30,814 bases of DNA from positions 1-30,814 of the IMG/VR virus record IMGVR_UViG_3300032247_001180. The stretch is one strand, 5' to 3'. Position numbers and translations under genes: made by a program. This document shows, piece by piece, positions 9,753 through 24,717 of this stretch. This DNA is from a virus. Its lineage: Duplodnaviria; Caudoviricetes. A model generated the notes under the pieces. That model worked only from the letters and a program-made list of their open reading frames with translations. It did not search any database and was not told the DNA's origin. Each line of letters opens with the position of its first letter. The stretch's first letter is position 1.

Positions 9753-10022
9753 TTGACCAAGTCAAAAAGCAATCAGATTGACCAAGCGATCAATAGCGCG
9801 CTGCAGAATTTGCAGAACGTTGAGATCAATTCAGATGAGTACTTCCAGACTATGACCGCTGTTGAGCGGCTCTATGCGCTTAAGAATGAGAAAAAGCGCG
9901 TGAGCCCTGACACCGCGGCCATTGTCGGCGGAAATCTCATTGGGATCATCATCATCGTCGCGTATGAACACGCGCACGTGATCGTGAGTAAGTCGTTCAA
10001 CTTGCTGCTTAAGACAAGATGA
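9753..10022 (+). CDS. Cassette ORF: 89-aa protein with C-terminal hydrophobic segment
   Basis: TTG start after CTACGAAAGGAA RBS; the track start at 9723 lies inside the promoter motif; GC-richer codons. Confidence 0.75.
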   Translation: MTKSKSNQIDQAINSALQNLQNVEINSDEYFQTMTAVERLYALKNEKKRVSPDTAAIVGGNLIGIIIIVAYEHAHVIVSKSFNLLLKTR

Positions 10023-10038
10023 CAGACCAAAAGTAGTA

Positions 10039-10088
10039 AAAACATAGAAGTCGTGTAAGATATCAAACTTACACGGCTTCTATGTTTT
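10039..10088 (+). terminator. Long hairpin closing cassette 1
   Basis: 21-bp stem AAAACATAGAAGTCGTGTAAG / CTTACACGGCTTCTATGTTTT (one G-T pair) with an 8-nt loop. Confidence 0.65.
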
Positions 10089-10127
10089 ACAACGCCTATA
10101 TTTTTTCCATTTTTGTTAAAAACTAGT

Positions 10128-10216
10128 CTCTATTTTGCGGTCTAAGCGATTTTAAAATGATAAGTGGTATGATTCTGTCATAATAGTAGTAAAATTGCTT
10201 AGAAGGCAAAATAGAG
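10128..10216. repeat. Long imperfect inverted repeat
   Basis: CTCTATTTTGC-gg-TCTAAGCGATTTTA ... TAAAATTGCTTAGA-ag-GCAAAATAGAG. Confidence 0.8.
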
Positions 10217-10241
10217 GGCAATGGGAAGAAACGGGTGTTTT

Positions 10242-10270
10242 TCGCACGTTTTGCAAGCCTTATAATGAGG
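10242..10270 (+). promoter_or_regulatory. Conserved promoter-like motif, copy 2
   Basis: TCGCA-cgttttGCAagcct-TATAATGAGG. Confidence 0.8.
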
Positions 10271-10292
10271 ATCAACCACGAAAGGAAGTACT

Positions 10293-10412
10293 ATGGCTGC
10301 TAAATTCTACCGGACTTGTTTCTGGATCGTCACCGGCGTTATCGCCGGGTCGATGCTGACACTGATCGGGAGTAAGGCACTCGCCGAAGAGTTCGCTTCT
10401 GAAGAGAAGTGA
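10293..10412 (+). CDS. Cassette ORF: 39-aa single-TM peptide (MAAKFYRTCFWIVTGVIAGSMLTLIGSKALAEEFASEEK)
   Basis: Translated by hand; CACGAAAGGAA RBS; lies between a promoter motif and a hairpin; below the ORF-track size cutoff. Confidence 0.8.
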   Translation: MAAKFYRTCFWIVTGVIAGSMLTLIGSKALAEEFASEEK

Positions 10413-10415
10413 TCC

Positions 10416-10452
10416 AAAAGATAAAGACCCTTAAACAAGGTCTTTATCTTTT
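10416..10452 (+). terminator. Conserved-loop hairpin/terminator
   Basis: AAAAGATAAAGACC-CTTAAACAA-GGTCTTTATCTTTT, a perfect 14-bp stem. Confidence 0.8.
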
Positions 10453-10480
10453 CGCAGTTTTTACATGCATCATAATGAGG
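10452..10480 (+). promoter_or_regulatory. Conserved promoter-like motif, copy 3
   Basis: TCGCA-gtttttACAtgcat-CATAATGAGG. Confidence 0.8.
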
Positions 10481-10503
10481 TAAAACTACGAAAGGAACAC
10501 AAA

Positions 10504-10605
10504 ATGGACTTCATCAAATCGTTGCTCTTCATTGGCTGCGCGACAACTGTCGTGCTCAGCGTGAAGAAGGCGTTTGACGCGTTCACCGAAACGCCTGAGC
10601 AGTAA
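10504..10605 (+). CDS. Cassette ORF: 33-aa hydrophobic peptide (MDFIKSLLFIGCATTVVLSVKKAFDAFTETPEQ)
   Basis: Translated by hand; CTACGAAAGGAA RBS; cassette context. Confidence 0.78.
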   Translation: MDFIKSLLFIGCATTVVLSVKKAFDAFTETPEQ

Positions 10606-10611
10606 CGCTTC

Positions 10612-10648
10612 AAAAGAGAAATACCCTTAAACAAGGTGTTTCTTTTTT
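10612..10648 (+). terminator. Conserved-loop hairpin/terminator
   Basis: AAAAGAGAAATACC-CTTAAACAA-GGTGTTTCTTTTTT. Confidence 0.8.
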
Positions 10649-10652
10649 TTTC

Positions 10653-10681
10653 TCGCAGAAATAACAAGGTTCATAATGAGG
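10653..10681 (+). promoter_or_regulatory. Conserved promoter-like motif, copy 4
   Basis: TCGCA-gaaataACAaggtt-CATAATGAGG. Confidence 0.8.
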
Positions 10682-10761
10682 AGTAGATAAAATGCTACGC
10701 ATTGTTGAAAAACTAAATTATCGATCTTCAGACGCATAGTCTGCAGAGCTTCTCTTTTTTT
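10678..10761 (+). ncRNA. Candidate small RNA (cassette without a convincing ORF)
   Basis: 5' GAGGAG can pair with CTTCTC just before a T-tract; internal hairpin CAGAC-gcata-GTCTG; only a 15-codon ORF is present. Confidence 0.35.
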
Positions 10762-10778
10762 CTAAAGAAAGAAGGGTT

Positions 10779-10904
10779 ATGTTCATTTACAAAGAGCCAA
10801 AACATTACGGGTTTTTTAATTTTCTGTTAGATATAATAATGATAGTAGCAACGGCTGGCCTTTGGTTTATTTGGATTATTATACGAGAAATTAGGAAAGG
10901 ATAA
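10779..10904 (+). CDS. 41-aa membrane protein (MFIYKEPKHYGFFNFLLDIIMIVATAGLWFIWIIIREIRKG)
   Basis: Translated by hand; purine-rich RBS; TAATG stop/start coupling with the next gene. Confidence 0.75.
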   Translation: MFIYKEPKHYGFFNFLLDIIMIVATAGLWFIWIIIREIRKG

Positions 10905-11632
10905 TGAGCAATTTTTCAGAAATTTTCAAAACAGCAGCAAATATTATGAGACAAAACTCGCCTTTGATTTTAACCGCAATTGGTGTTAGCGGTTCTATTA
11001 GCACTGCTTATTTAGCAGGTAAAGCATCATTTGAGGCTGCTCACGTATTGGCTGAAAATAATGCAGAAGATGCTCCAATAAAAGATAAGTTTGATATGGT
11101 CTGGGATCTTTATATTCCAGCAGCTATTTCAGGCGTTATAACTGTTGGGTGCATTATAACCGCGAGTAGGGTAAGCGCAAAGAGAACCGCAGCCGCCTAT
11201 TCTTTGGTTAGTCTTACGGAAAAAGCGTTTTTTGAGTATAAAGAAAAAGTCTCTGAAAAGCTAGGAGAGAAAAAAGAATTAGAAATTCGTAATGAGATTG
11301 CCCAGGATTACGTTACAAATAATGCCCCAAGTCAAGTTTTAGTTACTGGTTCTGGAGAAGTTCTTTGTTGTGAACTCTTTACTGGGCGTTATTTCTATAG
11401 CGATATGGAAAAGCTACGCAAAACTCAAAATGATATAAACGCAAAGCTTGTTACAGATTTGTTTGTTCCTTTAAGTGAGTTTTATTACTTAATCAATTTG
11501 CCTTACACAACACATTCTTCGTCTATTGGTTGGGAATCCTCAAAATTGCTTAATCTTGAGTTTTCTAGTGTATTTTCAGAAGACAACAAACCTTGTTTGG
11601 CTTTTGATTACAATTATACAAAGACAATATAA
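10904..11632 (+). CDS. Conserved phage protein (DUF6353-like), paralog A
   Basis: N-terminal SPLILTAIGVSG segment, LYIPA motif and AAAY..YKEKV.EKLGE; similar to 13339..14196. Confidence 0.7.
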   Translation: MSNFSEIFKTAANIMRQNSPLILTAIGVSGSISTAYLAGKASFEAAHVLAENNAEDAPIKDKFDMVWDLYIPAAISGVITVGCIITASRVSAKRTAAAYSLVSLTEKAFFEYKEKVSEKLGEKKELEIRNEIAQDYVTNNAPSQVLVTGSGEVLCCELFTGRYFYSDMEKLRKTQNDINAKLVTDLFVPLSEFYYLINLPYTTHSSSIGWESSKLLNLEFSSVFSEDNKPCLAFDYNYTKTI

Positions 11633-11661
11633 TCGCAAGTTTTACAAGTGTCATAATGAGG
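11633..11661 (+). promoter_or_regulatory. Conserved promoter-like motif, copy 5
   Basis: TCGCA-agttttACAagtgt-CATAATGAGG, directly abutting the upstream TAA. Confidence 0.8.
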
Positions 11662-11687
11662 TAATCCACTACGAAAGGAAATACGAA

Positions 11688-11858
11688 ATGGAACAGGAAC
11701 TCGTCACCGCGGCTGAGACCGTCGTCAAGTCCCGCAACCCCATCGTCATCGTTTGCGCTGCATCTGCAGCCGCTGCGGTGACGGCTGTTGCGGTCTGGCG
11801 CCGTCGTCGAAACCGCGACGAGGAGGAGATCGACCAGATCAACGCTCCCAAGAAGTAG
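11688..11858 (+). CDS. Cassette ORF: 56-aa single-TM protein with Arg cluster (MEQELVTAAE...WRRRRNRDEEE...)
   Basis: ATG after CTACGAAAGGAA; very GC-rich relative to flanks; true start lies within track ORF 11526..11858. Confidence 0.8.
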   Translation: MEQELVTAAETVVKSRNPIVIVCAASAAAAVTAVAVWRRRRNRDEEEIDQINAPKK

Positions 11859-11864
11859 AGCTTC

Positions 11865-11901
11865 AAAAGAGAAATACCCTTAAACAAGGTATTTCTTTTT
11901 T
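11865..11901 (+). terminator. Conserved-loop hairpin/terminator
   Basis: AAAAGAGAAATACC-CTTAAACAA-GGTATTTCTTTTTT. Confidence 0.8.
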
Positions 11902-11923
11902 CTAAACAAACTAAGGAGATAAA

Positions 11924-12355
11924 ATGCTTAAACGAGAAATAACCTATGAAGACTTTAATGGAGAAAAAGTCAGCGAGTACTTCTATTTCAATTTGTCAAA
12001 AACCGAGCTTATCGAGCTTGAGCACGAGTATGATCGTGGGTTTGCCGCGAATATAGAAGCAATTGTTGAGGCTAAGAGCACAAAAGAACTTATTGCAGAG
12101 TTCAAAAAGCTCATTCTTATGTCTTACGGAAAAAAATCTGAAGATGGAAAACGATTTATAAAGAGCGATGAACTTCGTGAAGAGTTTTCACAGACTGCGG
12201 CTTTTAATGAGCTGTTTATTCAGTTAGCAACTGATGAGAATGCTGCTGCTATATTTGTCAATAGTATTGTTCCTAAGGATATGGCTCAGTCTATTGAAAA
12301 GCAGAAAACGACTGCTGAGTTAGCATTAGAGCAGACTAAAACCGAAACTGAGTAA
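11924..12355 (+). CDS. Conserved hypothetical phage protein
   Basis: 143 aa, AAGGAG RBS. Confidence 0.75.
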   Translation: MLKREITYEDFNGEKVSEYFYFNLSKTELIELEHEYDRGFAANIEAIVEAKSTKELIAEFKKLILMSYGKKSEDGKRFIKSDELREEFSQTAAFNELFIQLATDENAAAIFVNSIVPKDMAQSIEKQKTTAELALEQTKTETE

Positions 12356-12384
12356 ACGCAAAAAAAACATCTTTCATAATGAGA
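12356..12384 (+). promoter_or_regulatory. Conserved promoter-like motif, copy 6
   Basis: ACGCA-aaaaaaACAtcttt-CATAATGAGA, directly abutting the upstream TAA. Confidence 0.75.
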
Positions 12385-12408
12385 TAAACTACAAAGAAAG
12401 GAAACGAA

Positions 12409-12657
12409 ATGATTGAACTTGTCAAATTCGCAACTACGGCGGTAACTAGTTCTGGTTTTGGAACTTTGGCGTCAGTAACCTTTGCGCGTATTGTTCCCGC
12501 AGCTAATCTTTCCAGATATGGTAAGGTGGTAATGTGGGTGACAAGTACGGCAACTGGCCTGGCACTTGCAAAGGCAACAAAACCAGCAACAGATGAATAC
12601 ATCGACGAAGTTGCTGAAGTAATTCAACAGATTCGCTACTACGGATCAAGTAGGTAA
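12409..12657 (+). CDS. Cassette ORF: 82-aa Ala/Thr-rich, probably membrane-associated protein
   Basis: AGAAAGGAA RBS; cassette context. Confidence 0.75.
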   Translation: MIELVKFATTAVTSSGFGTLASVTFARIVPAANLSRYGKVVMWVTSTATGLALAKATKPATDEYIDEVAEVIQQIRYYGSSR

Positions 12658-12660
12658 TCG

Positions 12661-12696
12661 AAGAGCATAAGATATTTAAACATATCTTATGCTTTT
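12661..12696 (+). terminator. Conserved-loop hairpin/terminator (different stem)
   Basis: AAGAGCATAAGATA-TTTAAACA-TATCTTATGCTTTT. Confidence 0.78.
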
Positions 12697-12721
12697 TTAA
12701 ATTCATAATAAAAGGAGAATA

Positions 12722-13330
12722 ATGGATTACCCGAGCAATTCAAATAGGAAAAAAGAAGAAAATCAAAAACCAAAGAAAGATATTGAAAAAGTAGTATCTA
12801 CGGAAGTAATAGTCCAAAAAAAGACAGTTTCCGATCGCTTTAAGAATATCTTTATTGGCGGAGAATTCAAAGCGTCAATGCGTTATATTTCTGCCGAGGT
12901 TCTTCTTCCAGCGTTTCGAAATATGATTGTCGATGCAACTACGAAGGGTATTGAGCGTGTTATTTATGGCGAATCAGCGCCAAAACTACCGCGAAGTAGT
13001 ATGCAACCAAGAATGTCGTATAACACTCCAGTAGACCGTTCTTACAGTAGGTTTGCAAGTCCTACGCCTCAGACTGTATCTAGAAATAGACGATACGATG
13101 TAAGTAACATCGTTCTTGTTTCTAGAGAAGAAGCAGAAACGGTTCTTGAGCGTTTAAGCGATATTCTTGGGCAATACGATGTAGCTTCTGTTGCAGATCT
13201 ACACCAACTTGTTGGCCTTCCATCAACGTGGGTGGACAATAAGTGGGGTTGGTCTTCTCTTAGATATGCAGATGTAAGACAAATACGTGAAGGCTTTTTG
13301 CTTGAACTTCCGCAAGTAGAACCAATTTAG
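12722..13330 (+). CDS. Conserved hypothetical phage protein
   Basis: 202 aa, AAAGGAG RBS; C-terminal SVADL..LVG...DNKWGW motif. Confidence 0.75.
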   Translation: MDYPSNSNRKKEENQKPKKDIEKVVSTEVIVQKKTVSDRFKNIFIGGEFKASMRYISAEVLLPAFRNMIVDATTKGIERVIYGESAPKLPRSSMQPRMSYNTPVDRSYSRFASPTPQTVSRNRRYDVSNIVLVSREEAETVLERLSDILGQYDVASVADLHQLVGLPSTWVDNKWGWSSLRYADVRQIREGFLLELPQVEPI

Positions 13331-13338
13331 GAGATAAA

Positions 13339-14196
13339 ATGAGTATAATTCCCGCCCCTATTACGCAAGGTATTTTTAGATCAGCGTTGGTTATTCAGAA
13401 GCATGCTCCTGCTATTTTATTTGGTTTGGGGGTGACTGGTGTTGCTACTAGTACTGTTCTAGCGTGTAAAGCAACATTGGAACTTCAGGATATTCTAGAT
13501 GAGATGCGTCAAGAACTAGACATGGTTCTTTACGATACAAACGATGTTGATAGTAAAGACGTTGCTTACGTCTATGCTAAAAACATTGCAAAGATAACAA
13601 GGCTTTACGCTCCAGCAGTAACTGTTGGCGCTATTTCAATTGGCGCTTTAACTGGATCGCATGTTGTCTTGACTCGTCGAAATGCTGGTTTGACCGCAGC
13701 ATATGCAGCTCTTTCAACTGCTTACGAAGAATATCGGCTTAGGGTGAAAAGCGAACTCGGAGAAAATAAAGAAATTGAGATTTATAAGGGGTATAAGCCA
13801 GAGGTGTTGAAAGCTGGAGAAGAACCTCAAACAATAACCACAAACCCGATTAGTGAGACATCGCCTTACGCAAGATTCTTTGACGAGTACAGTATTAACT
13901 GGGTTAAAAATGCAGAAATGAACCGACTGTTTATTCAGTGCCAGCAAAATACAGCAAACCAAATTTTGATTACAAAAGGGCATTTGTTTCTAAACGAAGT
14001 GTACGACATGCTTGGTTTAGACAGAACTAGTGCTGGCGCTGTTGTCGGCTGGGTTATTGGCGACAGAAATCATGTCGGCGATAACTATGTTGATTTTGGC
14101 ATTTTCTCTGAGAGAAATTCTAGGTTTGTTAACGGTTGGGAACGAAGTGTGCTTCTCGACTTTAATGTTGACGGCGTTATTTACGACAAAATTTAG
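13339..14196 (+). CDS. Conserved phage protein (DUF6353-like), paralog B
   Basis: KHAPAILFGLGVTG, LYAPA, GHLFLNEVYDMLG and LLDFNVDG motifs. Confidence 0.72.
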   Translation: MSIIPAPITQGIFRSALVIQKHAPAILFGLGVTGVATSTVLACKATLELQDILDEMRQELDMVLYDTNDVDSKDVAYVYAKNIAKITRLYAPAVTVGAISIGALTGSHVVLTRRNAGLTAAYAALSTAYEEYRLRVKSELGENKEIEIYKGYKPEVLKAGEEPQTITTNPISETSPYARFFDEYSINWVKNAEMNRLFIQCQQNTANQILITKGHLFLNEVYDMLGLDRTSAGAVVGWVIGDRNHVGDNYVDFGIFSERNSRFVNGWERSVLLDFNVDGVIYDKI

Positions 14197-14205
14197 GAGA
14201 TATAA

Positions 14206-14889
14206 ATGGATATTAAACTTATTGTAAACCAGAAGTGGGTGGTCCCGGCGGTTGTCGGGGCACTCTCTTTTACTGCAGGTTTTGGGGCAGGTATTATCGT
14301 GAGTAAGCGAAAAGAATCTGAAAATGAATTAGTTGAGGAAGATCCGCAAATGACTATATTTGATTTTTTTGATCAAGAAAATAGTTTTGACGAATCTAAA
14401 AAAGCGCATCCTTCTAATTACGTGGAAGAAGTTTTTACAGAAGAACCCGTTATTGATGACGAAGAAATTCCTGAAATAACAGTTAATAAGAATGTTTTTT
14501 CTGGAGATCTTAGTTTTTGGGACTACGACGTTGAGCTTCAATACCGAAACGATGGCCAGCCATATGTTATTCATTACGATGAGTTTATGAATAACGAAAC
14601 AAATTATCCACAGGAAACACTTACTTATTACCGTGGAGATGATATTGTTGCAGACCAACAGGATTCTCCGATCTATAATTATGCTTCCTTGATGGGTGAG
14701 TTGCGATTTGGGCATGGGTCAAATGACCCAAATGTTGTTTATATCCGAAACGATCAAATCCATATGGAATGGGAAATTCTTCTGCATGAAGGCTCTTATT
14801 CTTACGAGGTTGCTGGTATAGACAAACTCGAGGAATATGAGGCAGATGATATTCGCCATGCTAATGACCGAAAATTTAGAATGGATTAG
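14206..14889 (+). CDS. Acidic hypothetical protein with N-terminal TM anchor
   Basis: 227 aa, AGGAG RBS; hydrophobic segment at about residues 11-32. Confidence 0.72.
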   Translation: MDIKLIVNQKWVVPAVVGALSFTAGFGAGIIVSKRKESENELVEEDPQMTIFDFFDQENSFDESKKAHPSNYVEEVFTEEPVIDDEEIPEITVNKNVFSGDLSFWDYDVELQYRNDGQPYVIHYDEFMNNETNYPQETLTYYRGDDIVADQQDSPIYNYASLMGELRFGHGSNDPNVVYIRNDQIHMEWEILLHEGSYSYEVAGIDKLEEYEADDIRHANDRKFRMD

Positions 14890-14891
14890 CC

Positions 14892-15416
14892 ATGGACGAG
14901 CCACTTGAGAATTTATATTTCAATTGGCTCTACTCACAAGTTAGTGATGCGTACCCGCCGGCCTTGTACCGTACTAGTCTTTTAGGAGAACTCCATAAAA
15001 TAGAATATTTATGGTTTATTTCTGGAGATGATAACAGATATGAAGACGGCTTAGAATTGAGAACAGAGTTTCTGCAGGAAACAGGATATGATTATGAGTA
15101 TTCATTTTTTGCAGAAGGATGTAGTGTTCTTGAGATGTTAATTGCTTTCTCCCGTAGAGCCTCGTTTCAAACAGAGGAAAGTCCTCGGGAATGGTTTTGG
15201 ATAATGGTTGACAATTTGGGGTTACTGGAATTAGATAATTCTGTTGACACAAATTGCAAAGCTTTGAGAGAAATAATCAATGTGTTTATTTCCAGAACGT
15301 ATGGCAGCAACGGAAGCGGTGGATTGTTTCCGTTGCGCCATACGCTCAATAATCAAAGAAAAGTTGAAATATGGTACCAATTCAGTGAATATTTACACGA
15401 ACTAAAAAATACCTGA
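14892..15416 (+). CDS. Conserved hypothetical phage protein
   Basis: 174 aa, tightly packed in the operon before the polymerase gene. Confidence 0.72.
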   Translation: MDEPLENLYFNWLYSQVSDAYPPALYRTSLLGELHKIEYLWFISGDDNRYEDGLELRTEFLQETGYDYEYSFFAEGCSVLEMLIAFSRRASFQTEESPREWFWIMVDNLGLLELDNSVDTNCKALREIINVFISRTYGSNGSGGLFPLRHTLNNQRKVEIWYQFSEYLHELKNT

Positions 15417-15426
15417 AAGGAGGCTT

Positions 15427-18400
15427 GTGGATTTCTATCAAATTAGTTTAAAAGAAGTTAAGGGTGGACCTCCGCAGCTTTACCCGGACTGGACGGTTGG
15501 CAGGTCAAAAGACCTAATGGTTCGTGGCCGTTCTTTTTACGCAGTATGGGATGAAGAAAGAAACCTCTGGTCAACTGACGAATATGATGTTCAACGGTTA
15601 GTAGACCAAGATCTGCATAGATATAATGCAGAACATAACAATGAATATAAGGTTCAAAGTTTGCGTTCGTACAATACCCAAGTATGGAGCAAATTTAGAA
15701 GCTTTATGCAAAATATTAGTGATAATAGTCATCCTTTAGACGAAAACATTATATTTGCTAATTCAGACGTTAAAAAGTCTGATTACGCAAGCAAACGTCT
15801 ATCATATTCTTTAGAGCCAGGAAACCATGCTTCTTGGGACGAACTTATTAGTGTTTTATATTCTGAAGAAGAAAAGACAAAAATAGAATGGGCTATTGGC
15901 GCAATCGTTTCTGGAGACTCTAAATTTATCCAGAAATTTCTTGTATTTTATGGACCAGCAGGAAGCGGTAAATCAACGGTTCTAAATATCATACATAAAA
16001 TGTTTGAAAGTTATGTTGCGACGTTTGACGCAAAAGCATTAGCAAGTAATAATAACTCTTTTGCGACGGAGGTATTTAGATCAAACCCGCTAGTTGCTAT
16101 TCAGCATGACGGCGATTTGTCTAAGATTGAAGACAACACGAAGTTGAACTCAATTATTTCTCACGAAGAAATGACAATGAACGAAAAGTATAAACCTAGC
16201 TATACAGCTAAGGTTAACGCATTTTTATTTATGGGAACAAATAAGCCAGTCAAAATTAGTGACGCAAAGTCTGGTATAATTCGAAGACTCATTGACGTTC
16301 ATCCTACTGGCGCAAAAATAGAACCAAACCACTATAATTTGCTTATGCAGAGAATTGATTTTGAGTTTGGAGCTATTGCCCATCATTGTCTTAAGATATA
16401 TCAAGAACTTGGCAAAAACTATTATAATTCATATAAACCTCTAGAGATGATGCTCCAGACTGATGTGTTTTATAATTATGTAGAATACTGTTTTGATCTA
16501 TTTAAGAAACAAAACGGCGTGTCACTTAAGCAGGCTTACGAATTATATAAAGACTTTTGCCATGAAACAAGCCTTGACCGTTTGCTGCCGCAATACAAAT
16601 TCAGGGAAGAACTTCGAAATTATTTTGAATATTTTGACCAGACTAAGGAGGTCGACGGAGTTATGGTTAGAAGTTATTACTCTGGTTTTAAAAACCTTCA
16701 AGCGCCAACACCTTTTATATTAGACAACTCATATTTGATAAAAGTTGATTCTAATATGTCTGCGTTTGATGTTATTTGCGCTGAACAACCTGCTCAATAT
16801 GGAAAAGAAAGTGGTTTCCCTGGAACAAAGTGGGCGAACGTTTCAACAAAATTATCAGACATCAACACATCAAAACTTCATTTTGTAAAAATTCCAGAAA
16901 AACATATTGTCATAGATTTTGATCTTTGTGACGAAAACGGAGAAAAGGATCTTAACAAGAATTTAGAAGAAGCTTCAAAATGGCCGCCAACATACACTGA
17001 ATTGAGTAAAAGCGGTTCTGGAGTACACCTTCATTATATTTATAGTGGCGATGTAACTGAACTTAGTTCTGTGTATGATGTTGGTATTGAAGTAAAAACT
17101 CTTCTTGGCGACAGTTCTCTTAGGAGAAAGTTAACAAAATGCAATAATCTAGAAATAGCTGTATTAAATGGTGGTCTACCAAAGAAAGAGAAGACTATGC
17201 TCGAAAATAAAAGTATTCAGACAGAGAAAAGCCTTCGCGATTTAATCGGAAGAAATTTACGTAAAGAAATACACCCTGGGACAAAGTCGTCAGTTGATTT
17301 TATCCATAAGATTTTAGAAGACGCTTATGAAAATGGCGTCAGCTATGACCTTCGGGATATGCGTTCGGAAATTCTTTCCTTTGCGGCAAGAAGTACAAAC
17401 CAGTCAACAGCAGCTATAAAGACTGTCCAAACTATGAAGTTTGTTAGCAATAAACCAATGGAAGAAAATGAAGACGAAGATAAGCCTTTGGTTTTCTTTG
17501 ACGTTGAGGTTTACCCTAACCTGTTTGTTATTTGCTGGAAATATGCTGGAGAAGCTGATGTTGTTACGATGGTAAACCCGACTGCTAACGAAGTAGAGCA
17601 GCTTTTTGCCATGCGTCTTGTTGGGTTTAATAACAGGCGTTACGATAATCATATTCTTTACGCAGCGTTTCTTGGATACACAAACGAAGAACTTTACAGG
17701 TTGAGCAGTCAGATCATTGCAAATAATAACCGAGTTTTGTTTGGGGAAGCTTATAATCTATCTTATGCGGATATTTACGATTTATCGTCCAAGAAACAAG
17801 GTTTGAAAAAGTTCCAGATTGAACTTGGCATTCATCATATGGAAATGGATTATCCTTGGGATCAGCCAGTTCCAAAAGAATATTGGGACCTTGTTGTTAA
17901 ATATTGCTCCAACGATGTTGTTGCAACAGAAGCGGTATTTAATAATAGGTCTCAGGATTTTGCTGCAAGGAAAATTTTATCAGAAATTTCTGGGCTTACC
18001 ATAAATCATACGACTCAGAATCATACAGCAAAAATTGTTTTTGGGGATGATAAAGAACCGCAAAGCAAATTTATTTACACCGACCTTAGTGAGCAATTTC
18101 CTGGATATAAATTTGATGGAAAGGAAAGTATTTATCGAAATGAAATCACTGGAGAAGGCGGGTACGTATACGCTGAAAGTGGGGTCTATCAAAACGTCGC
18201 CGTTTTGGACGTTGCGAGTATGCATCCGACGTCCATTGAACAGCTCAATATGTTTGGACCATACACAAAGAAGTTTTCAGAACTCAAAGAAGCGCGTTTG
18301 GCAATTAAGCATAAGGAGTACGACAAAGCCTCTAAGCTACTTGACGGTAAGCTCGCCAAGTATTTGGATGGCAACGACGAAAATGCTGAAGGTCTATCGT

Positions 18401-19122
18401 ACGCTCTAAAAATTGTTATTAATATTGTGTACGGTTTGACCAGTGCAAGTTTCCCAAATCAGTTCAGAGACAATCGTAATAAAGACAATATTGTTGCAAA
18501 ACGTGGCGCTTTGTTTATGATTGACTTGAAGCATTTTGTTCAGGAGAAGGGTTTTTCTGTTGCTCACATTAAGACGGATTCTATTAAAATCCCAGAAGCA
18601 ACTGAAGAAATAATAAACGAAGTGATTGAATTTGGGAAAAAATATGGGTACGAGTTTGAGCATGAGACCACATATTCCAAGTTTTGCCTTGTAAACGATG
18701 CTGTTTACATCGCAAAGGATGGACAGAATTGGGTCGCTGTAGGAGCTCAATTTCAGCATGCATACGTTTTCAAAACGTTATTTACAAAAGAGGAACTTGT
18801 GTTCGATGATTTTTGTGAAACAAAAAATGTTACGCAAGGGTCTATGTGGCTTGAGTTCCCAGACGGAACAGAGTTGCACGTAGGAAGAACTGGAAGTTTT
18901 GTGCCCGTTCTTTACGATGGTGGAACTCTGTGGCGTGTAAAAGACGGAAAGAAATATGCAGTAACTGGAACGAAGGGGTATCAATGGCTTGAGCGTCACG
19001 CAGCAATTGGACGGCTTGAACTTGATACTGAGTTTATCGATTACTCATATTTTGAGCAATTGAAAGATAATGCTGAAAGCGCTATAAATTATTATACCTT
19101 ATTAGACAAATTTGTAATGTGA
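15427..19122 (+). CDS. Fused SF3 (D5-like) helicase / AEP primase-polymerase / 3'-5' exonuclease / family B DNA polymerase
   Basis: GTG start with AAAGGAGG RBS. Walker A GPAGSGKST and FMGTN; Prim-Pol motifs VIDFD and SKSGSGVHLHY; ExoI FFDVEVY, ExoII GFNNRRYD and ExoIII YCSNDV; PolB motifs DVASMHPT, KIVINIVYG and KTDS. Confidence 0.9.
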   Translation: MDFYQISLKEVKGGPPQLYPDWTVGRSKDLMVRGRSFYAVWDEERNLWSTDEYDVQRLVDQDLHRYNAEHNNEYKVQSLRSYNTQVWSKFRSFMQNISDNSHPLDENIIFANSDVKKSDYASKRLSYSLEPGNHASWDELISVLYSEEEKTKIEWAIGAIVSGDSKFIQKFLVFYGPAGSGKSTVLNIIHKMFESYVATFDAKALASNNNSFATEVFRSNPLVAIQHDGDLSKIEDNTKLNSIISHEEMTMNEKYKPSYTAKVNAFLFMGTNKPVKISDAKSGIIRRLIDVHPTGAKIEPNHYNLLMQRIDFEFGAIAHHCLKIYQELGKNYYNSYKPLEMMLQTDVFYNYVEYCFDLFKKQNGVSLKQAYELYKDFCHETSLDRLLPQYKFREELRNYFEYFDQTKEVDGVMVRSYYSGFKNLQAPTPFILDNSYLIKVDSNMSAFDVICAEQPAQYGKESGFPGTKWANVSTKLSDINTSKLHFVKIPEKHIVIDFDLCDENGEKDLNKNLEEASKWPPTYTELSKSGSGVHLHYIYSGDVTELSSVYDVGIEVKTLLGDSSLRRKLTKCNNLEIAVLNGGLPKKEKTMLENKSIQTEKSLRDLIGRNLRKEIHPGTKSSVDFIHKILEDAYENGVSYDLRDMRSEILSFAARSTNQSTAAIKTVQTMKFVSNKPMEENEDEDKPLVFFDVEVYPNLFVICWKYAGEADVVTMVNPTANEVEQLFAMRLVGFNNRRYDNHILYAAFLGYTNEELYRLSSQIIANNNRVLFGEAYNLSYADIYDLSSKKQGLKKFQIELGIHHMEMDYPWDQPVPKEYWDLVVKYCSNDVVATEAVFNNRSQDFAARKILSEISGLTINHTTQNHTAKIVFGDDKEPQSKFIYTDLSEQFPGYKFDGKESIYRNEITGEGGYVYAESGVYQNVAVLDVASMHPTSIEQLNMFGPYTKKFSELKEARLAIKHKEYDKASKLLDGKLAKYLDGNDENAEGLSYALKIVINIVYGLTSASFPNQFRDNRNKDNIVAKRGALFMIDLKHFVQEKGFSVAHIKTDSIKIPEATEEIINEVIEFGKKYGYEFEHETTYSKFCLVNDAVYIAKDGQNWVAVGAQFQHAYVFKTLFTKEELVFDDFCETKNVTQGSMWLEFPDGTELHVGRTGSFVPVLYDGGTLWRVKDGKKYAVTGTKGYQWLERHAAIGRLELDTEFIDYSYFEQLKDNAESAINYYTLLDKFVM

Positions 19123-19130
19123 GGAGTGTT

Positions 19131-19355
19131 ATGTTTGAAGAAACCGAAGAGCTTTATGACGTTATTTCACTTGACGGTTTGATGTTCGAGTCTTGGGAGG
19201 AGAATGAGGACGTTATAATCCGCCCAAGACTCGAAGAAAATGGTTTTTATGCTATAGAGTTTGAAAACTGTGCTGTAGACAAATTTGGTGTTATCACCAG
19301 AGTTGTGACTTGTATTGATTTTAATGGAAATTTCCGCAAATTTATTTACGGTTAA
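19131..19355 (+). CDS. Small acidic hypothetical protein
   Basis: ATG at 19131 follows GAGGAG and is preferred over the track start at 19119. Confidence 0.65.
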   Translation: MFEETEELYDVISLDGLMFESWEENEDVIIRPRLEENGFYAIEFENCAVDKFGVITRVVTCIDFNGNFRKFIYG

Positions 19356-19370
19356 ACAAAAGGATAAAAA

Positions 19371-19835
19371 ATGCCCGAAGCAAATACATTTATGATTGAA
19401 AACGCAAGAATTATATTTAGGAATTTTGAGGGTAAGGAGGGTCAGTACAATAGAAACGGCGACCGAAACTTTGCCGTTGTTATCCCCGACGAAAAAACTG
19501 CTCAGGATATGCTTAAGGACGGTTGGAACGTTAAATACCTTCAGCCTAGAGAAGAAGGAGATGACCCCACTCCTTATATCCAGGTCGCAGTTAGTTACAA
19601 AAACCGGCCTCCGCGTGTTGTGATGATGACAAGTATGGCTAGGACCATTCTGTCAGAGGACAACATCGAGATCCTTGATTGGGCTGATATAAAGTCATCG
19701 GATCTTATTTGCCGTGCCTATGAGTGGGATGTTAACGGTAAAACTGGTGTTAAAGCATATCTTCAGTCTCTTTTCGTTACTATCGAAGAAGATTATCTTG
19801 AGCGTAAATATGCGGTAAACGACCAAGAGGAGTAA
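19371..19835 (+). CDS. Probable single-stranded DNA-binding protein
   Basis: NARIIFRNF.G...YN..GDRNF and GVKAYLQSLFVTI motifs, acidic C-terminus, adjacent to the polymerase. Confidence 0.65.
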   Translation: MPEANTFMIENARIIFRNFEGKEGQYNRNGDRNFAVVIPDEKTAQDMLKDGWNVKYLQPREEGDDPTPYIQVAVSYKNRPPRVVMMTSMARTILSEDNIEILDWADIKSSDLICRAYEWDVNGKTGVKAYLQSLFVTIEEDYLERKYAVNDQEE

Positions 19836-19836
19836 T

Positions 19837-20124
19837 ATGTATCCGTACGATTTAACCCGGAATGCAAAGTTATTTGTTGCGGATTATATAAATAAAAAAA
19901 ATGAAGACGTGCATGAAATAGATCCTATAAAATTAGGAGAGCTTTCGATTGTTTGGTTTTCAAAAACAATAAACAATTGGGCTGCATTTATTGCGACTAA
20001 TATACCAAATGGTATTTATTACGAAGTTGGCTCTATTTCTAACAAAAATAATATTTATTTAAAAGAATATAAAATGACAGATAGTATCATTATAAACGAT
20101 ATAGAAAGTGAAACAAATGATTGA
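19837..20124 (+). CDS. DUF6275-like phage protein
   Basis: IVWFSKTINNW.A.I.T..PNGIYYEV motif. Confidence 0.65.
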   Translation: MYPYDLTRNAKLFVADYINKKNEDVHEIDPIKLGELSIVWFSKTINNWAAFIATNIPNGIYYEVGSISNKNNIYLKEYKMTDSIIINDIESETND

Positions 20125-20518
20125 TTATAACAATAAAACTCTTCAGAATGCAACTGATTCTGATCTTCCGTTTAGCCAGTTTGTCCGTACTCCTTTTTCG
20201 GTTGAAGCATTAATTATCACCGAGGAAAATATCGAGTCGGTTGCTCGACTGGTCGGGACTGTCAGGGTTAAAAATGATGAAAAGTATATTGCTTTGGACC
20301 GCCGTGTTGTTCCTAATATCAGCCGTGCTTATATCGGCTGGTATCTCACTCGTCTTGGAGATAACCTTCGCTGTTATTCTCCTAAAGTGTTTATGGAGCA
20401 GTTTGAGCCTATGCCAGACACGATGATTGTTCATTTTGATTTCAATAATGCTACGGATGAAGATCCTGGTTTTGTTGAAGCAACTGAGGACACTCTCAAC
20501 CAGATCACTTTTGAGTGA
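20117..20518 (+). CDS. Hypothetical protein
   Basis: ORF overlaps the upstream stop; start is ATG 20117 or GTG 20108. Confidence 0.7.
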   Translation: MIDYNNKTLQNATDSDLPFSQFVRTPFSVEALIITEENIESVARLVGTVRVKNDEKYIALDRRVVPNISRAYIGWYLTRLGDNLRCYSPKVFMEQFEPMPDTMIVHFDFNNATDEDPGFVEATEDTLNQITFE

Positions 20519-20687: not shown

Positions 20688-20771
20688 GCTCGGATGGCGA
20701 AATTGGCAAACGCAGAAGACTTAAAATCTTCCGATGAAAACATCTTGCGGGTTCGAGCCCCGCTCCGAGCA
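20688..20771 (+). tRNA. tRNA-Leu (TAA)
   Basis: Acceptor GCTCGGA/TCCGAGC; anticodon arm GAAGA-CT TAA AA-TCTTC; long variable arm; T arm GCGGG-TTCGAGC-CCCGC; CCA not encoded. Confidence 0.93.
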
Positions 20772-20772
20772 C

Positions 20773-20801
20773 TCGCAAAAATAACAAGTTTTATAATGAG
20801 A
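20773..20801 (+). promoter_or_regulatory. Conserved promoter-like motif, copy 7
   Basis: TCGCA-aaaataACAagttt-TATAATGAGA. Confidence 0.8.
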
Positions 20802-20895
20802 TAGACCACCTATAAGAACTAAGGTTTTATAACTCGTACTTAGTTACGCTACGGCGGGTACGGCCCATACTTATACGTGGTTTATCTTTTTTTTT
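20799..20895 (+). ncRNA. Candidate multibranch small RNA driven by motif 7
   Basis: Closing stem AGATAGACCAC-c-TATAAG / CTTATA-c-GTGGTTTATCT; inner AACTAAG/CTTAGTT and CGC-TACG-GCG (UNCG tetraloop); ends in T9. Confidence 0.6.
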
Positions 20896-21072: not shown

Positions 21073-21101
21073 TCGCAAAAAATACAAGCTGTATAATGAG
21101 A
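21073..21101 (+). promoter_or_regulatory. Conserved promoter-like motif, copy 8
   Basis: TCGCA-aaaaatACAagctg-TATAATGAGA. Confidence 0.8.
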
Positions 21102-21146
21102 AGGAGTGTATATATATCTATGATATTTATACACCTTTCTTTTTTT
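21099..21146 (+). terminator. Hairpin plus T-tract immediately after motif 8 (attenuator or tiny RNA)
   Basis: AGAAGG-a-GTGTATA-t-ATATC / GATAT-t-TATACAC-CTTTCT followed by Ts. Confidence 0.6.
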
Positions 21147-21174
21147 CTGTCAACCAACGATTAAGGAGACTCAA

Positions 21175-21501
21175 ATGGCAGAAAGTCAATACAAGAAGGA
21201 TCACATGCTGGTGCAGGTTCGTACGCTTCATCACGAGAACTTGACTAGTATTGCTAATAAATACGGAATCACGATCCGAAGCCTCGTGGACTTCATCTTG
21301 TCGGCGGCACTTTCCGATGCTGGAAATGCCGACGAGATCGGCAAGATCCTTAGGGATCGTCAGCGGAGTATCGATATCGCTACCTCGATGGGCAAGACGA
21401 AAAAGCTCATCGAACAGGAGCGTGAAAGGGCAGAAGCGCGCATTTCCAAACTCGAGGCAAGACTGGCCGAGTTGCAAGCAAAGTCGTCTGAGCGACTCTA
21501 A
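21175..21501 (+). CDS. Probable ribbon-helix-helix-like DNA-binding protein with C-terminal coiled coil
   Basis: Beta-strand MLVQV then helices HHENLTSIANKYG-ITIRSLVDFILSAAL; heptads LIEQERERAEARISKLEARLAELQ; AAGGAG RBS; GC-rich codons. Confidence 0.55.
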   Translation: MAESQYKKDHMLVQVRTLHHENLTSIANKYGITIRSLVDFILSAALSDAGNADEIGKILRDRQRSIDIATSMGKTKKLIEQERERAEARISKLEARLAELQAKSSERL

Positions 21502-21696: not shown

Positions 21697-21770
21697 GCAC
21701 CTATAGCTCAGTTGGTTAGAGCAGGCGACTCATAATCGCTCGGCCCCAGGTTCAAGTCCTGGTGGGTGCA
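21697..21770 (+). tRNA. tRNA with CAT anticodon, probably Ile2 (lysidine-modified, reads ATA); elongator Met not excluded
   Basis: Cloverleaf with acceptor GCACCTA/TGGGTGC; anticodon arm GGCGA-CT CAT AA-TCGCT as in bacterial tRNA-Ile2; C4-G69 and C5-G68 pairs. Confidence 0.85.
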
Positions 21771-21774
21771 CTAT

Positions 21775-22209: not shown

Positions 22210-22282
22210 GCCCCTATAACTCAATAGGTAGAGTAGCGGCCTTTTAAGCCGACAGTTCTAGGTTCAAGTCCTAGTGGGGGCA
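22210..22282 (+). tRNA. tRNA-Lys (TTT)
   Basis: Acceptor GCCCCTA/TGGGGGC; anticodon arm CGGC-CT TTT AA-GCCG; T arm CTAGG-TTCAAGT-CCTAG. Confidence 0.9.
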
Positions 22283-22286
22283 CTAC

Positions 22287-22363
22287 CCGGAAGTAGCTCA
22301 GTTGGTTAGAGCGCGATTCTTATACAGTCGTGGTCGATGGTTCGATCCCATCCTTCCGGACCA
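22287..22363 (+). tRNA. tRNA-Ile (TAT), CCA encoded
   Basis: Acceptor CCGGAAG/CTTCCGG plus ACCA; anticodon arm CGATT-CT TAT AC-AGTCG; T arm GATGG-TTCGATC-CCATC. Confidence 0.88.
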
Positions 22364-22708: not shown

Positions 22709-22840
22709 ATGGGATTCATCATGGACGTACTGAACTCAGTGATCGATTTCCAAGTCAAGTATTGGCTCTGGGGATTCGTTCCGCTGATTGCATTTTACGT
22801 CGTGTTTGGAGTCATGTATTACTTGAACCGAAACAAGTAA
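22709..22840 (+). CDS. Cassette ORF: 43-aa single-TM peptide (MGFIMDVLNSVIDFQVKYWLWGFVPLIAFYVVFGVMYYLNRNK)
   Basis: Translated by hand; GGAAAGGAA RBS; cassette context. Confidence 0.8.
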   Translation: MGFIMDVLNSVIDFQVKYWLWGFVPLIAFYVVFGVMYYLNRNK

Positions 22841-22897: not shown

Positions 22898-23323
22898 ATG
22901 CAAACATTTCTTCCGTATGATGATTTCAATAAATGCGCAGAAGTATTGGACATACGTAGACTTGGAAAACAGCGCGTTGAGACGTACCAGATCATGAATG
23001 TATTAGCAGGTTTGAATACTGGGTCTGGGTGGGTAAACCATCCTGCTGTAAAAATGTGGCGGGGGCATGAAGAATATCTTTTGTATTACCAAGAATCAAT
23101 AGTAAAAGAATGGTCCATTCTTGGATACAAAGATACATGTCTAGAAAAAACAAAAATGTCGTTTTCAAATATAAAAACAAAAATGTCAAAACCAGAATGG
23201 CTTGGTCTTGATATTTTGCACGCTTCTCATCGAAGTAACCTGTTGAGAAAAAATAAAGATTTCTACGGATTATATTCGTGGAAAGAACCAGATAATATGC
23301 CATATTATTGGCCAGTTAATTAA
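22898..23323 (+). CDS. Pyrimidine-dimer DNA glycosylase (endonuclease V / MSMEG_6728-like family)
   Basis: MQTFLPY...LD.RRLGKQRVE.YQI, HPAVKMWRG, PEWLG...HASHRSNLLRK and YYWP motifs. Confidence 0.82.
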   Translation: MQTFLPYDDFNKCAEVLDIRRLGKQRVETYQIMNVLAGLNTGSGWVNHPAVKMWRGHEEYLLYYQESIVKEWSILGYKDTCLEKTKMSFSNIKTKMSKPEWLGLDILHASHRSNLLRKNKDFYGLYSWKEPDNMPYYWPVN

Positions 23324-23331
23324 GGAGAAAC

Positions 23332-23544: not shown

Positions 23545-23720
23545 ACAATTGGTATTTGTTAATAATTATTTCGCTCGGTTTTTTTAACAGCATGATTGTA
23601 GGGTATATGCTTGGTTTGAACCGAGGTTATAAAATCAGTAACGAAATTGAAGAAATGCAAGCGGACGTTAATTATAATGCTGGTTTTGTTGACGGGATGA
23701 GCGCTGCAAATGAGCTTTAA
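23541..23720 (+). CDS. 59-aa membrane protein (MNNWYLLIIISLGFFNSMIVGYMLG...)
   Basis: Translated by hand; ATGA overlap with the upstream gene; AAGGAG RBS. Confidence 0.7.
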   Translation: MNNWYLLIIISLGFFNSMIVGYMLGLNRGYKISNEIEEMQADVNYNAGFVDGMSAANEL

Positions 23721-23726
23721 TACCCC

Positions 23727-23755
23727 ACGCAAGATTTACCTAGTATATAATGAGG
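23727..23755 (+). promoter_or_regulatory. Conserved promoter-like motif, copy 10
   Basis: ACGCA-agatttACCtagta-TATAATGAGG. Confidence 0.75.
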
Positions 23756-23780
23756 TACTACTCTAGACGAAAGAGGGAAA

Positions 23781-23915
23781 ATGGAAATACTGCATGATTT
23801 TCTTAATCTGTTTCTGGAACTACTCGGGGCGCTTTTGGTCCTGATCGTTCTGATTCCGATTATGCTGCTCATTGCCGTAATCAACTTTCTTGATAACGAC
23901 AAAAAGAAGAAGTAG
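23781..23915 (+). CDS. Cassette ORF: 44-aa highly hydrophobic peptide (MEILHDFLNLFLELLGALLVLIVLIPIMLLIAVINFLDNDKKKK)
   Basis: Translated by hand; GAAAGAGGG RBS; cassette context. Confidence 0.8.
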   Translation: MEILHDFLNLFLELLGALLVLIVLIPIMLLIAVINFLDNDKKKK

Positions 23916-23918
23916 CTC

Positions 23919-23955
23919 AAAAGTTAAAGCTCTTTTTACAGGGGCTTTAACTTTT
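23919..23955 (+). terminator. Hairpin/terminator, loop variant
   Basis: AAAAGTTAAAGCTC-TTTTTACAG-GGGCTTTAACTTTT. Confidence 0.78.
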
Positions 23956-23957
23956 TC

Positions 23958-23986
23958 TCGCATAAATCACAAGGCACATTATGAGG
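23958..23986 (+). promoter_or_regulatory. Conserved promoter-like motif, copy 11
   Basis: TCGCA-taaatcACAaggca-CATTATGAGG, nearly identical to copy 9. Confidence 0.78.
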
Positions 23987-24013
23987 ACTAACCAACAACA
24001 AGGAGGAAGTAAA

Positions 24014-24127
24014 ATGGTGAAGAAGATCAAGAGGGCTTACTACGAAGTGCGTTTTATGAACGCATCTGAACGTGGTGACCTGGCAGATTCATTCATCTAT
24101 TTTCACAAGATGAAGAGTTGTCTTTAA
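24014..24127 (+). CDS. Cassette ORF: 37-aa basic soluble peptide (MVKKIKRAYYEVRFMNASERGDLADSFIYFHKMKSCL)
   Basis: Translated by hand; AAGGAGG RBS; cassette context. Confidence 0.75.
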   Translation: MVKKIKRAYYEVRFMNASERGDLADSFIYFHKMKSCL

Positions 24128-24131
24128 ACTC

Positions 24132-24168
24132 AAAAAGGAAAACCCCTTAAACAAGGGTTTTCTTTTTT
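24132..24168 (+). terminator. Conserved-loop hairpin/terminator
   Basis: AAAAAGGAAAACCC-CTTAAACAA-GGGTTTTCTTTTTT. Confidence 0.8.
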
Positions 24169-24196
24169 CGCAGGTTATACACGTTATATAATGAGG
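24168..24196 (+). promoter_or_regulatory. Conserved promoter-like motif, copy 12
   Basis: TCGCA-ggttatACAcgtta-TATAATGAGG. Confidence 0.8.
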
Positions 24197-24222
24197 TATT
24201 AACCACTACGAAAGGAAACAAA

Positions 24223-24381
24223 ATGTTTCGAACCATGAAGGGTGCGATTAGCGCGACCGCTGAAGGGGCCAAGTTCGGCTTCGTCACGTTCGTGTTCTTT
24301 TCGCTCTGTGCATTCGCGTTCGGAGTCATCAAGTTCGCTTTTAACTTGATGGTGAATACGATCAGTAAGGCAACCCGTTAA
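24223..24381 (+). CDS. Cassette ORF: 52-aa Phe-rich TM peptide (MFRTMKGAISATAEGAKFGFVTFVFFSLCAFAFGVIKFAFNLMVNTISKATR)
   Basis: Translated by hand; CTACGAAAGGAA RBS; stop codon falls in the loop of the closing hairpin. Confidence 0.78.
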   Translation: MFRTMKGAISATAEGAKFGFVTFVFFSLCAFAFGVIKFAFNLMVNTISKATR

Positions 24382-24397
24382 CACGGGTTGTTTTACT
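24364..24397 (+). terminator. Hairpin/terminator, loop variant
   Basis: AGTAAGGCAACCCG-TTAACA-CGGGTTGTTTTACT. Confidence 0.75.
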
Positions 24398-24401
24398 TTT
24401 C

Positions 24402-24430
24402 TCGCACAAAAAACATCCTTCATAATGAGG
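24402..24430 (+). promoter_or_regulatory. Conserved promoter-like motif, copy 13
   Basis: TCGCA-caaaaaACAtcctt-CATAATGAGG. Confidence 0.8.
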
Positions 24431-24459
24431 TTAACATTCACTTAATCGGAGGTAATCAG

Positions 24460-24717
24460 ATGGAAAACCAAGAACTCGTTCAAGCAGAATGCTATAAGGT
24501 CATTCGAAAAGAAGAACGTAGACTGACGGAAAAATATTCGTCAACTCCAGAATCAACCGCAACTGATCTTTACAGGTCAGGCATTGCTGTTGGGGCTGAA
24601 GTTGTGGCGAATATGATCCTTAGTCTTGTCGAGATTTCGGATGCGCAAAGGCAAAAGCTTGTTGCCGAGCTTTCGGGTTTTTACAATCTTAACTTCATCG
24701 AAGTTAAATTTTTTTAA
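24460..24717 (+). CDS. Cassette ORF: 85-aa hypothetical protein (MENQELVQAEC...)
   Basis: ATG after GGAGGT RBS; true start lies within track ORF 24388..24717. Confidence 0.75.
   Translation: MENQELVQAECYKVIRKEERRLTEKYSSTPESTATDLYRSGIAVGAEVVANMILSLVEISDAQRQKLVAELSGFYNLNFIEVKFF

Follow-up and report, generated by a model that had tools for sequence, protein, structure and literature searches.

Three codon tiers and four tRNA genes in a fragment of an uncultured 1706-like phage, probably reflecting expression-linked selection

Promoter-led cassettes and codon tiers in the window

The DNA analysed here, referred to below as the window, is the 30,814-base stretch (38% guanine-plus-cytosine (GC) content) of the uncultured virus record IMGVR_UViG_3300032247_001180, in which ten short open reading frames (ORFs), the cassette ORFs, nearly lack the codons TTA and ATA that load the surrounding genes, and which also encodes four transfer RNAs (tRNAs). 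The called genes all lie on the + strand, and their order runs from tail genes through the holin, a replication block and the tRNA region to a helicase and an RNA-polymerase-like protein. Low-copy virion and lysis genes (neck, tape measure at 2427-6851, minor tail, holin at 9311-9697) occupy positions 1468..9697, and the replication block (conserved unknown genes, a primase/polymerase of 1231 amino acids (aa) at 15427-19122, a single-strand annealing protein at 19371-19835) occupies 10904..20518. The RNA-polymerase-like protein (892 aa, 27651..30329) carries DFDGD at residue 513 and a C-terminal helix-turn-helix (HTH). The window's own capsid and major tail genes lie off its left end, as does the terminase/portal/protease-capsid fusion block that is present in relatives.

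Each cassette ORF follows the repeated motif TCGCA-N-TATAATGAG and has a Shine-Dalgarno site. This promoter-like motif, TCGCAN-N13-(T/C)ATAAT-GAG(G/A), occurs in 13 copies, which start at 9707 (the first copy, 9707..9735, + strand), 10242, 10452, 10653, 11633, 12356, 20773, 21073, 22655, 23727, 23958, 24168 and 24402, and a matrix built from these sites gives 13 matches on the + strand and 0 on the − strand. Ten of the 13 copies lead to a Shine-Dalgarno site and an ORF of 33-89 aa; a hydrophobic stretch is present in eight of these ORFs, and six have downstream a repeated terminator-like hairpin with a CCCTTAAACAAGG core and a T-run, whose six + strand copies start at 10402 (10402..10452), 10598, 11851, 22829, 24118 and 24706.

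The cassette ORFs, all on the + strand, are given here with TTA as a share of Leu codons, ATA of Ile codons and AAA of Lys codons, and with the GC content of third codon positions (GC3). They lie at 9753..10022 (89 aa, TTG start, phrog_5818; TTA 0/8, ATA 0/10, GC3 0.67), 10293..10412 (39 aa; 0/3, 0/3), 10504..10605 (33 aa; 0/3, 0/2), 11688..11858 (56 aa; 0/1, 0/4, GC3 0.73), 12409..12657 (82 aa, weak match to phrog_7539; 0/5, 0/5, GC3 only 0.33), 22709..22840 (43 aa; 0/4, 0/3), 23781..23915 (44 aa, hydrophobic; 0/13, 1/6), 24014..24127 (37 aa; 0/2, 0/2, AAA 0/5), 24223..24381 (52 aa; 0/2, 0/3, AAA 0/4) and 24460..24717 (85 aa; 0/8, 0/5, GC3 0.36). The 108-aa ORF at 21175..21501 (+ strand), not directly behind a motif, uses the same dialect (TTA 0/12, ATA 0/10, GC3 0.60), and the 41-aa ORF at 10779..10904 (+ strand), separated from the motif at 10653 by a hairpin and T-run, uses that of the core genes (TTA 1/3, ATA 4/9). 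A pyrimidine dimer DNA glycosylase (PF03013, 76.5 bits) lies amid the cassettes at 22898-23323.

When pooled, the ten cassette ORFs (560 codons with their starts, 550 without) contain TTA at 0/49 Leu, ATA at 1/43 Ile (the single one in the ORF at 23781-23915) and AAA at 10/40 Lys codons, with a GC3 of 0.56. The replication-block genes, taken together with the helicase, use TTA at 21%, ATA at 27% and AAA at 65% (GC3 0.33), and the low-copy virion genes with the block at 26260-30585 use them at 47%, 49% and 85% (GC3 0.24), the tape measure gene (TTA 69/154, ATA 66/152) and the RNA-polymerase-like gene (TTA 38/73, ATA 29/59, AAA 78/91) being examples. A first-pass annotation of this DNA had described two codon dialects, naming the near absence of TTA and ATA from the cassettes and the 108-aa ORF, their abundance in the 41-aa ORF and the loading of the tape measure and RNA-polymerase-like genes. 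All of these counts were reproduced, and distinct dialects do exist; however, there are three rather than two, with the replication-block genes intermediate. The depletion of AAA belongs to the same pattern, and the bias of the cassettes spans many amino-acid families.

Against non-cassette usage (TTA 34%, ATA 38%), the probability of finding no TTA in the cassettes is 1.4e-9, and that of finding at most one ATA is 2.4e-8. A GC-matched comparison, which had been proposed along with the two dialects, was made by tilting core usage to the GC level of the cassettes as fitted on the other amino acids, and the depletion survives it: the expected and observed counts are 14.1 and 1 for ATA (p=9e-7), 19.8 and 10 for AAA (p=0.001) and 5.7 and 0 for TTA (p=0.002), making these the three most depleted cassette codons. 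With a null taken from the replication-block genes alone, the TTA depletion weakens to p=0.03. AGA, ACA and TCT are also depleted in the cassettes, although no tRNA in the window reads them. GC content alone, as a cause of the cassette codon bias, was rejected by the tilted null.

The same motif was found by matrix in isolates of clusters DJ, CC, BI, AU, AW and FK, and a repeated TATAAT-containing motif ahead of small genes has been reported in the DJ phage Vardy (PMC9671010). A standard sigma-70 scan of the window (8 sites, 11.3 expected) misses the cassette motif because its conserved upstream box lies 13 nt, not 16-18, from the -10 box; the motif may be read by the phage RNA-polymerase-like protein through its C-terminal HTH, or with an activator. 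The other three motif copies lead to short hairpin-plus-U-run stretches lacking a convincing ORF (10680-10765, 20800-20895 and 21100-21150), which are candidate small RNAs and which have no Rfam match at the gathering score. The related records G001 and G002 and Avazak share a non-coding stretch behind the promoter motif, possibly a conserved structured RNA.

tRNA genes, lineage and codon usage in relatives

ARAGORN calls four tRNA genes on the + strand, with the anticodons already named in the first-pass annotation: tRNA-Leu(TAA) with a long variable arm (20688..20772), a tRNA with a CAT anticodon (21697..21771), tRNA-Lys(TTT) (22210..22283) and a nominal Ile tRNA with a TAT anticodon, which reads ATA (22287..22363). 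In all eight matches listed, the CAT tRNA agrees with E. coli tRNA-Ile at 87-91%, and it contains C4-G69, C5-G68 and G27-U43, which are determinants for TilS; it is likely tRNA-Ile2, which would read ATA after lysidine modification by the host. Since this tRNA looks like Ile2, the four phage tRNAs correspond to the codons most depleted in the cassettes (ATA, AAA and TTA). The TAT tRNA has a divergent body, with C38 in the loop and a G-U pair in the anticodon stem where four relatives have A38, and it has no close match in phage records, the best listed reaching 73-79%; its charging as Ile is not certain. In tRNA-Lys(TTT) the anticodon loop is closed by a C31-G39 pair; A-U occupies this position in 5 of the 8 Lys(TTT) tRNAs listed. 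The tRNA bodies differ strongly between relatives, which suggests that the same anticodons were captured repeatedly in the lineage, and the tRNAs seen in the window's clade all read A-ending codons (Leu TAA, Ile TAT/CAT, Lys TTT, Thr TGT, Arg TCT). A Pistol ribozyme (RF02679, 21482..21547, + strand, 68.2 bits against a gathering score of 34.5) overlaps the stop of the 108-aa ORF and lies 150 nt upstream of the Ile2-like tRNA. The ribozyme recurs in 6 of 7 relatives that carry tRNAs and in 4 of 7 that do not, and is therefore a feature of the clade rather than a partner of the tRNAs.

To judge from its genes, the window is part of the genome of a 1706-like siphovirus whose relatives include actinobacteriophage clusters BI, CC and DJ. 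The primase/polymerase matches Gordonia cluster DJ phages (tblastn, 99% cover, ~62% identity) and cluster CC phages (~61%), as well as phages of Rhodococcus, Streptomyces, Arthrobacter, Lactococcus and Faecalibacterium, and 251 records cover at least 80% of it at E<=1e-100. The group with these phages has been described as the Lactococcus 1706-like actinobacteriophage supercluster, clusters AM/AU/AW/BI/CC/DJ/EL (Koert et al., 10.1101/842583), and its traits are present at 24773-30585 by PHROG matches (helicase, HNH, exonuclease, RNA-polymerase-like HTH protein and a small conserved right-end gene). The ReqiPepy6 homologue of the RNA-polymerase-like protein is annotated as similar to 1706 gp75, a structural protein. 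Primase/polymerase trees, which omitted near-duplicates and partial primases with fewer than 830 aligned residues, place the window within an uncultured clade (support 1.0) whose sister group comprises Streptomyces/Rhodococcus/Gordonia phages (FastTree support 1.0, 0.998 and 0.764 in three trees). Given this sister position, an actinobacterial, high-GC host is the parsimonious reading. A host search in genome collections gave 16 loci, none of those placed in the tree falling within the window's clade, and a search with the tail fibre for a clue to the host gave 57 proteins with no informative name.

For comparison of codon usage, 38 related records were rebuilt, their genes being called automatically and labelled by homology; for the capsid fusion and the major tail gene, the labels were compared with PHROGs and one isolate annotation as a check. 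The relatives used for these two genes are 64-73% identical to the window in the primase/polymerase. The capsid part and the major tail gene have a lower share of TTA+ATA+AAA than the low-copy late genes in all 33 records holding both, and an overlapping set of 32 other loci points in the same direction (TTA in 27, with 2 equal, ATA in 30, AAA in 28). The nearest near-complete relative is G002, which has tRNAs for Lys, Leu and Ile; its capsid fusion contains TTA at 0/43 and ATA at 0/42, its major tail gene TTA at 0/19 and ATA at 0/16. G034 and G035 carry the same four anticodons as the window at 38% GC; the last 330 capsid codons contain TTA at 1/25 in each, ATA at 0/26 and 0/23, and AAA at 2/22 in each, and the protease part of the same ORF contains TTA at 11/29 and 9/30 (p=0.003 and 0.015, respectively). 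Such a difference within one ORF fits a difference in output inside one transcript. As TTA and ATA are scarce in relatives' capsid and major tail genes too, the split likely reflects output, not an early/late switch. The codon shift occurs also in relatives without tRNAs.

Over 59 codons, the shift between cassette and low-copy genes of the window correlates with the capsid-plus-tail shift of clade relatives (rho 0.47-0.81, ten records), and its correlation with the shift of two Lactococcus phages is 0.17 and -0.04. A score derived from relatives and leaving out Leu, Ile and Lys orders 42 window genes by their TTA+ATA share (rho -0.66), and does so among the 32 non-cassette genes too (rho -0.54).

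In G034 and homologues, codon bias changes in a step around codons 240-300 of the protease-capsid fusion. In 31/31 records, GC3 over the last 330 codons equals or exceeds that of the preceding part. An in-frame ATG with a Shine-Dalgarno-like site is present at codons 237-280 in 7 of the 11 records inspected, so that scaffold and capsid may have an internal start; in G034 and G035 an internal Shine-Dalgarno site and ATG stand close to the step.

tRNA carriage was compared with codon load in 34 clade records collapsed to 27, the Arthrobacter phages being left out. The median TTA load is 0.17 in the 6 carriers and 0.03 in the 21 non-carriers (p=0.005), the ATA load 0.24 and 0.09 (p=0.003), and the AAA load 0.51 and 0.25 (p=0.04). 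Of 57 mostly AT-rich records from outside the clade, 54 have none of these tRNAs in the sequence available, despite a median TTA share of 0.37, which is expected if their hosts read these codons well. An excess of these codons in late over middle genes that is specific to carriers was not found, either with or without G008-G011, whose tRNA region lies outside the contig: after removal of these four records, the TTA medians are 0.38 and 0.40 (6 vs. 14 records, p=0.80), and carriers and non-carriers do not differ for ATA (p=0.71) or AAA (p=0.24).

Several other features of the window were observed. Positions 1-500 have 59% GC, compared with 38% overall, and hold the start of a partial tail-fibre gene with a weak GDSL-like match; this is possibly a recently exchanged segment. 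Assembly contigs of three DNA runs, followed over 1-12000, cover the stretch and break at two terminator repeats, and the left end was not usefully extended. One run may be the source of the window, and the lake-water run contained only short pieces. No RNA run was among the 4 runs listed as containing the sequence, which is no indication for or against its expression. A 37-nt inverted repeat after the helicase is followed by a stretch rich in A/T runs (25993-26260), and a perfect 32-nt tandem duplication lies near the right end (30609-30672).

Explanations for the codon tiers

The explanation judged probable is expression-linked selection on codon usage combined with compensation by tRNAs. 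The cassette genes would be heavily translated and selected towards host-preferred codons, leaving few TTA, ATA and AAA; the capsid and major tail genes of relatives would be under the same selection, and weakly expressed genes would drift AT-rich. The four phage tRNAs, if charged and used, would top up the decoding of the most loaded A-ending codons in a presumably actinobacterial host preferring AAG/ATC/CTS, and would speed the translation of many low-copy genes rather than switch a programme on. That the codons of the phage tRNAs are rare in the host is suggested by their scarcity in capsid genes and by the tree. High-copy structural genes carry the bias, as translational selection predicts, in 33/33 related records, and the anticodons match the codons overused in the low-copy genes (TTA 47%, ATA 49%, AAA 85%). 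The first-pass proposal that cassettes are read by host tRNAs, with the core dependent on phage tRNAs, thus holds in part: the cassette dialect looks host-adapted and the tRNAs match the core load, but the dependence of virion genes as a class does not stand, the capsid part and major tail gene of relatives avoiding these codons even where the same four tRNAs are present.

Several observations weigh against expression-linked selection with tRNA compensation. The key capsid and tail comparison rests on relatives, because the window's own genes lie off the left end, and TTA is partly tolerated in late genes of G034 (major tail 6/22, whole capsid fusion 12/54). The link between tRNAs and load was corrected for kinship solely by collapsing near-identical records, many of them partial, and one record, L316, has a TTA load of 0.54 with no Leu(TAA) found. 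The tRNAs of low-GC Rhodococcus phages are reported not to compensate rare codons exclusively (PMC13313380). The holin genes of three four-tRNA records contain TTA+ATA at 12/18, 11/20 and 14/22 (55-67%), compared with 0/17 and 0/25 in two AT-rich records in which no tRNA was found. Finally, the ORFs at 12409, 23781 and 24460 score core-like on other amino acids, yet have TTA+ATA at 0/10, 1/19 and 0/13, and timing could be an alternative cause of this purge.

An unlikely explanation of the tRNA set is counter-defence, in which the tRNAs replace host tRNAs cut by anticodon nucleases and the dialects arise independently by translational selection. A phage-encoded tRNA-Lys that is altered in its anticodon stem allows T5 to escape PARIS (PMC11464382), and the window's tRNA-Lys differs in the stem by its C31-G39 pair; in addition, G015 carries Lys(TTT) alone at an AAA load of only 0.18. 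However, the clade tRNAs all read A-ending codons and carriage rises with load, and Ile(TAT) has no usual bacterial counterpart to replace (PMC3575796). Counter-defence is compatible with expression-linked selection and may contribute.

Distinctly doubtful is a mixed explanation in which output sets most of the dialect, early genes are additionally selected against TTA and ATA before phage tRNAs accumulate, and these tRNAs relax or delay low-copy genes of the late phase, for instance the holin. The partial tolerance of TTA in late genes of G034 and G035, the loaded holins of the four-tRNA records and the three cassette ORFs that purge TTA/ATA beyond their general score all agree with it. Nevertheless, no late excess is specific to carriers, and the holin loading comes from two independent lineages, is absent in G002 (2/19) and G017 (3/22), and is not significant, TTA+ATA enrichment over background reaching significance in 0/24 records (lowest p=0.07). 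Quite improbable is a tRNA clock laid over ordinary bias, by which the most AT-drifted members would time a few low-copy late genes, chiefly the holin. If true, tRNA build-up would time lysis and the supply of virion RNA polymerase, which would make the case much more interesting, but little evidence points that way.

The temporal switch originally proposed, a tRNA gate under which host tRNAs translate the cassettes from the outset and the replication and virion genes must await the phage tRNAs, is very improbable. It could draw on the identity of the three codons most depleted after GC matching (ATA, AAA, TTA) with the phage-tRNA codons, on the stepwise rise in codon load from cassettes through replication genes to low-copy virion genes, and on the cassette ORFs that lack TTA/ATA despite core-like usage elsewhere. 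However, the capsid and major tail genes of tRNA carriers lack these codons too, and the late-over-middle excess is equal with and without tRNAs. AGA is likewise in excess in the window's late low-copy genes, with no cognate tRNA, and the promoter-led ORFs called automatically in G034 contain TTA at 4/9 and ATA at 3/14; such automatic cassette calls miss divergent motifs, giving 1 site in Correa and 0 in the Lactococcus and Faecalibacterium phages. Crowding of TTA/ATA at 5′ ends was not detected in 24 core genes (28/76 in the first 20 codons vs. 430/1132 later, p=0.9). Moreover, Leu(UAA), Lys(UUU) and Ile2 tRNAs generally belong to a bacterium's own tRNA complement.

Recent acquisition of the cassette ORFs from a GC-richer donor, before drift to the phage's AT bias, is the least probable explanation: repeats bound the cassettes, and for nine of the ten ORFs the genes called in the 38 related records include no homologue at E<=0.001, but short, fast-evolving ORFs may escape BLAST, the vertically inherited capsid gene shows the dialect too, and the ORF at 9753, which has the dialect, is old in the lineage (36 phage isolates) with a GC3 that varies from 0.26 to 0.86 with lineage. 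Named beforehand as a refuting possibility, recent acquisition was rejected for that ORF by its homologues in 32/38 related records.

Comparison with known systems

In Streptomyces, bldA is a tRNA-Leu(UAA) that gates genes containing TTA, and codons gated in this way tend to lie near the 5′ end of the target genes. The window resembles this system in having a tRNA-Leu(UAA) and a gene class that contains no TTA. In contrast to bldA, TTA is here a bulk codon (34% of Leu outside the cassettes) spread along genes, it is avoided by the most abundant late genes of relatives, and there is no sign of a few gated regulators. For phages whose tRNA sets are nearly complete, late genes have been proposed to rely on the phage tRNAs (PMC12482277); the tRNA set of the window is not of this kind.

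As in the 1706-like supercluster, all genes point forward, the primase/polymerase is 62% identical to that of Gordonia DJ phages, an RNA-polymerase-like HTH protein is encoded, a TATAAT motif precedes small, often hydrophobic genes and GC content is below the host level. The window differs as an uncultured sister branch that is far richer in AT (38% GC compared with 45-60%), with a Pistol ribozyme and with Leu/Ile/Lys tRNAs that are absent from the eight actinobacteriophage isolates scanned. The account of Koert et al. (10.1101/842583) gives genome-wide averages rather than gene-level dialects, and the literature searched, which took in few subscription papers, contained no study of codon usage gene by gene in this group. 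Across the lineage, GC content forms a natural series from 38% to 60%, along which tRNAs for A-ending codons turn up as the codon load increases; the series would be useful for understanding why phages carry tRNAs.

Phage tRNAs of the T4 type that compensate codon usage have been summarised (PMC4032129, PMC4810235), and the window shares with them a small tRNA set for overused A-ending codons and codon classes among genes; it differs in having Ile(TAT) beside a likely Ile2(CAT) and in tRNA bodies that vary widely between relatives. High-copy structural phage genes are known to match host codons (Lucks et al. 2008, PMC2266997), and the low-GC mycobacteriophage Patience adapts only its abundant genes, as judged from measured expression (PMC4324244). 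The same pattern is seen here, in that the phage is AT-richer than its likely host and its abundant products use host-preferred codons while the rest do not. Compared with Patience, the bias extends to small promoter-led cassettes in a 38% GC genome, four tRNAs serve the loaded codons instead of one, and expression is inferred rather than measured. A cheap control follows for similar cases, namely to check the capsid and major tail genes before early genes free of tRNA codons are read as a temporal switch. The window is an unusually sharp case of known phage codon economics, an ordinary phage pattern.

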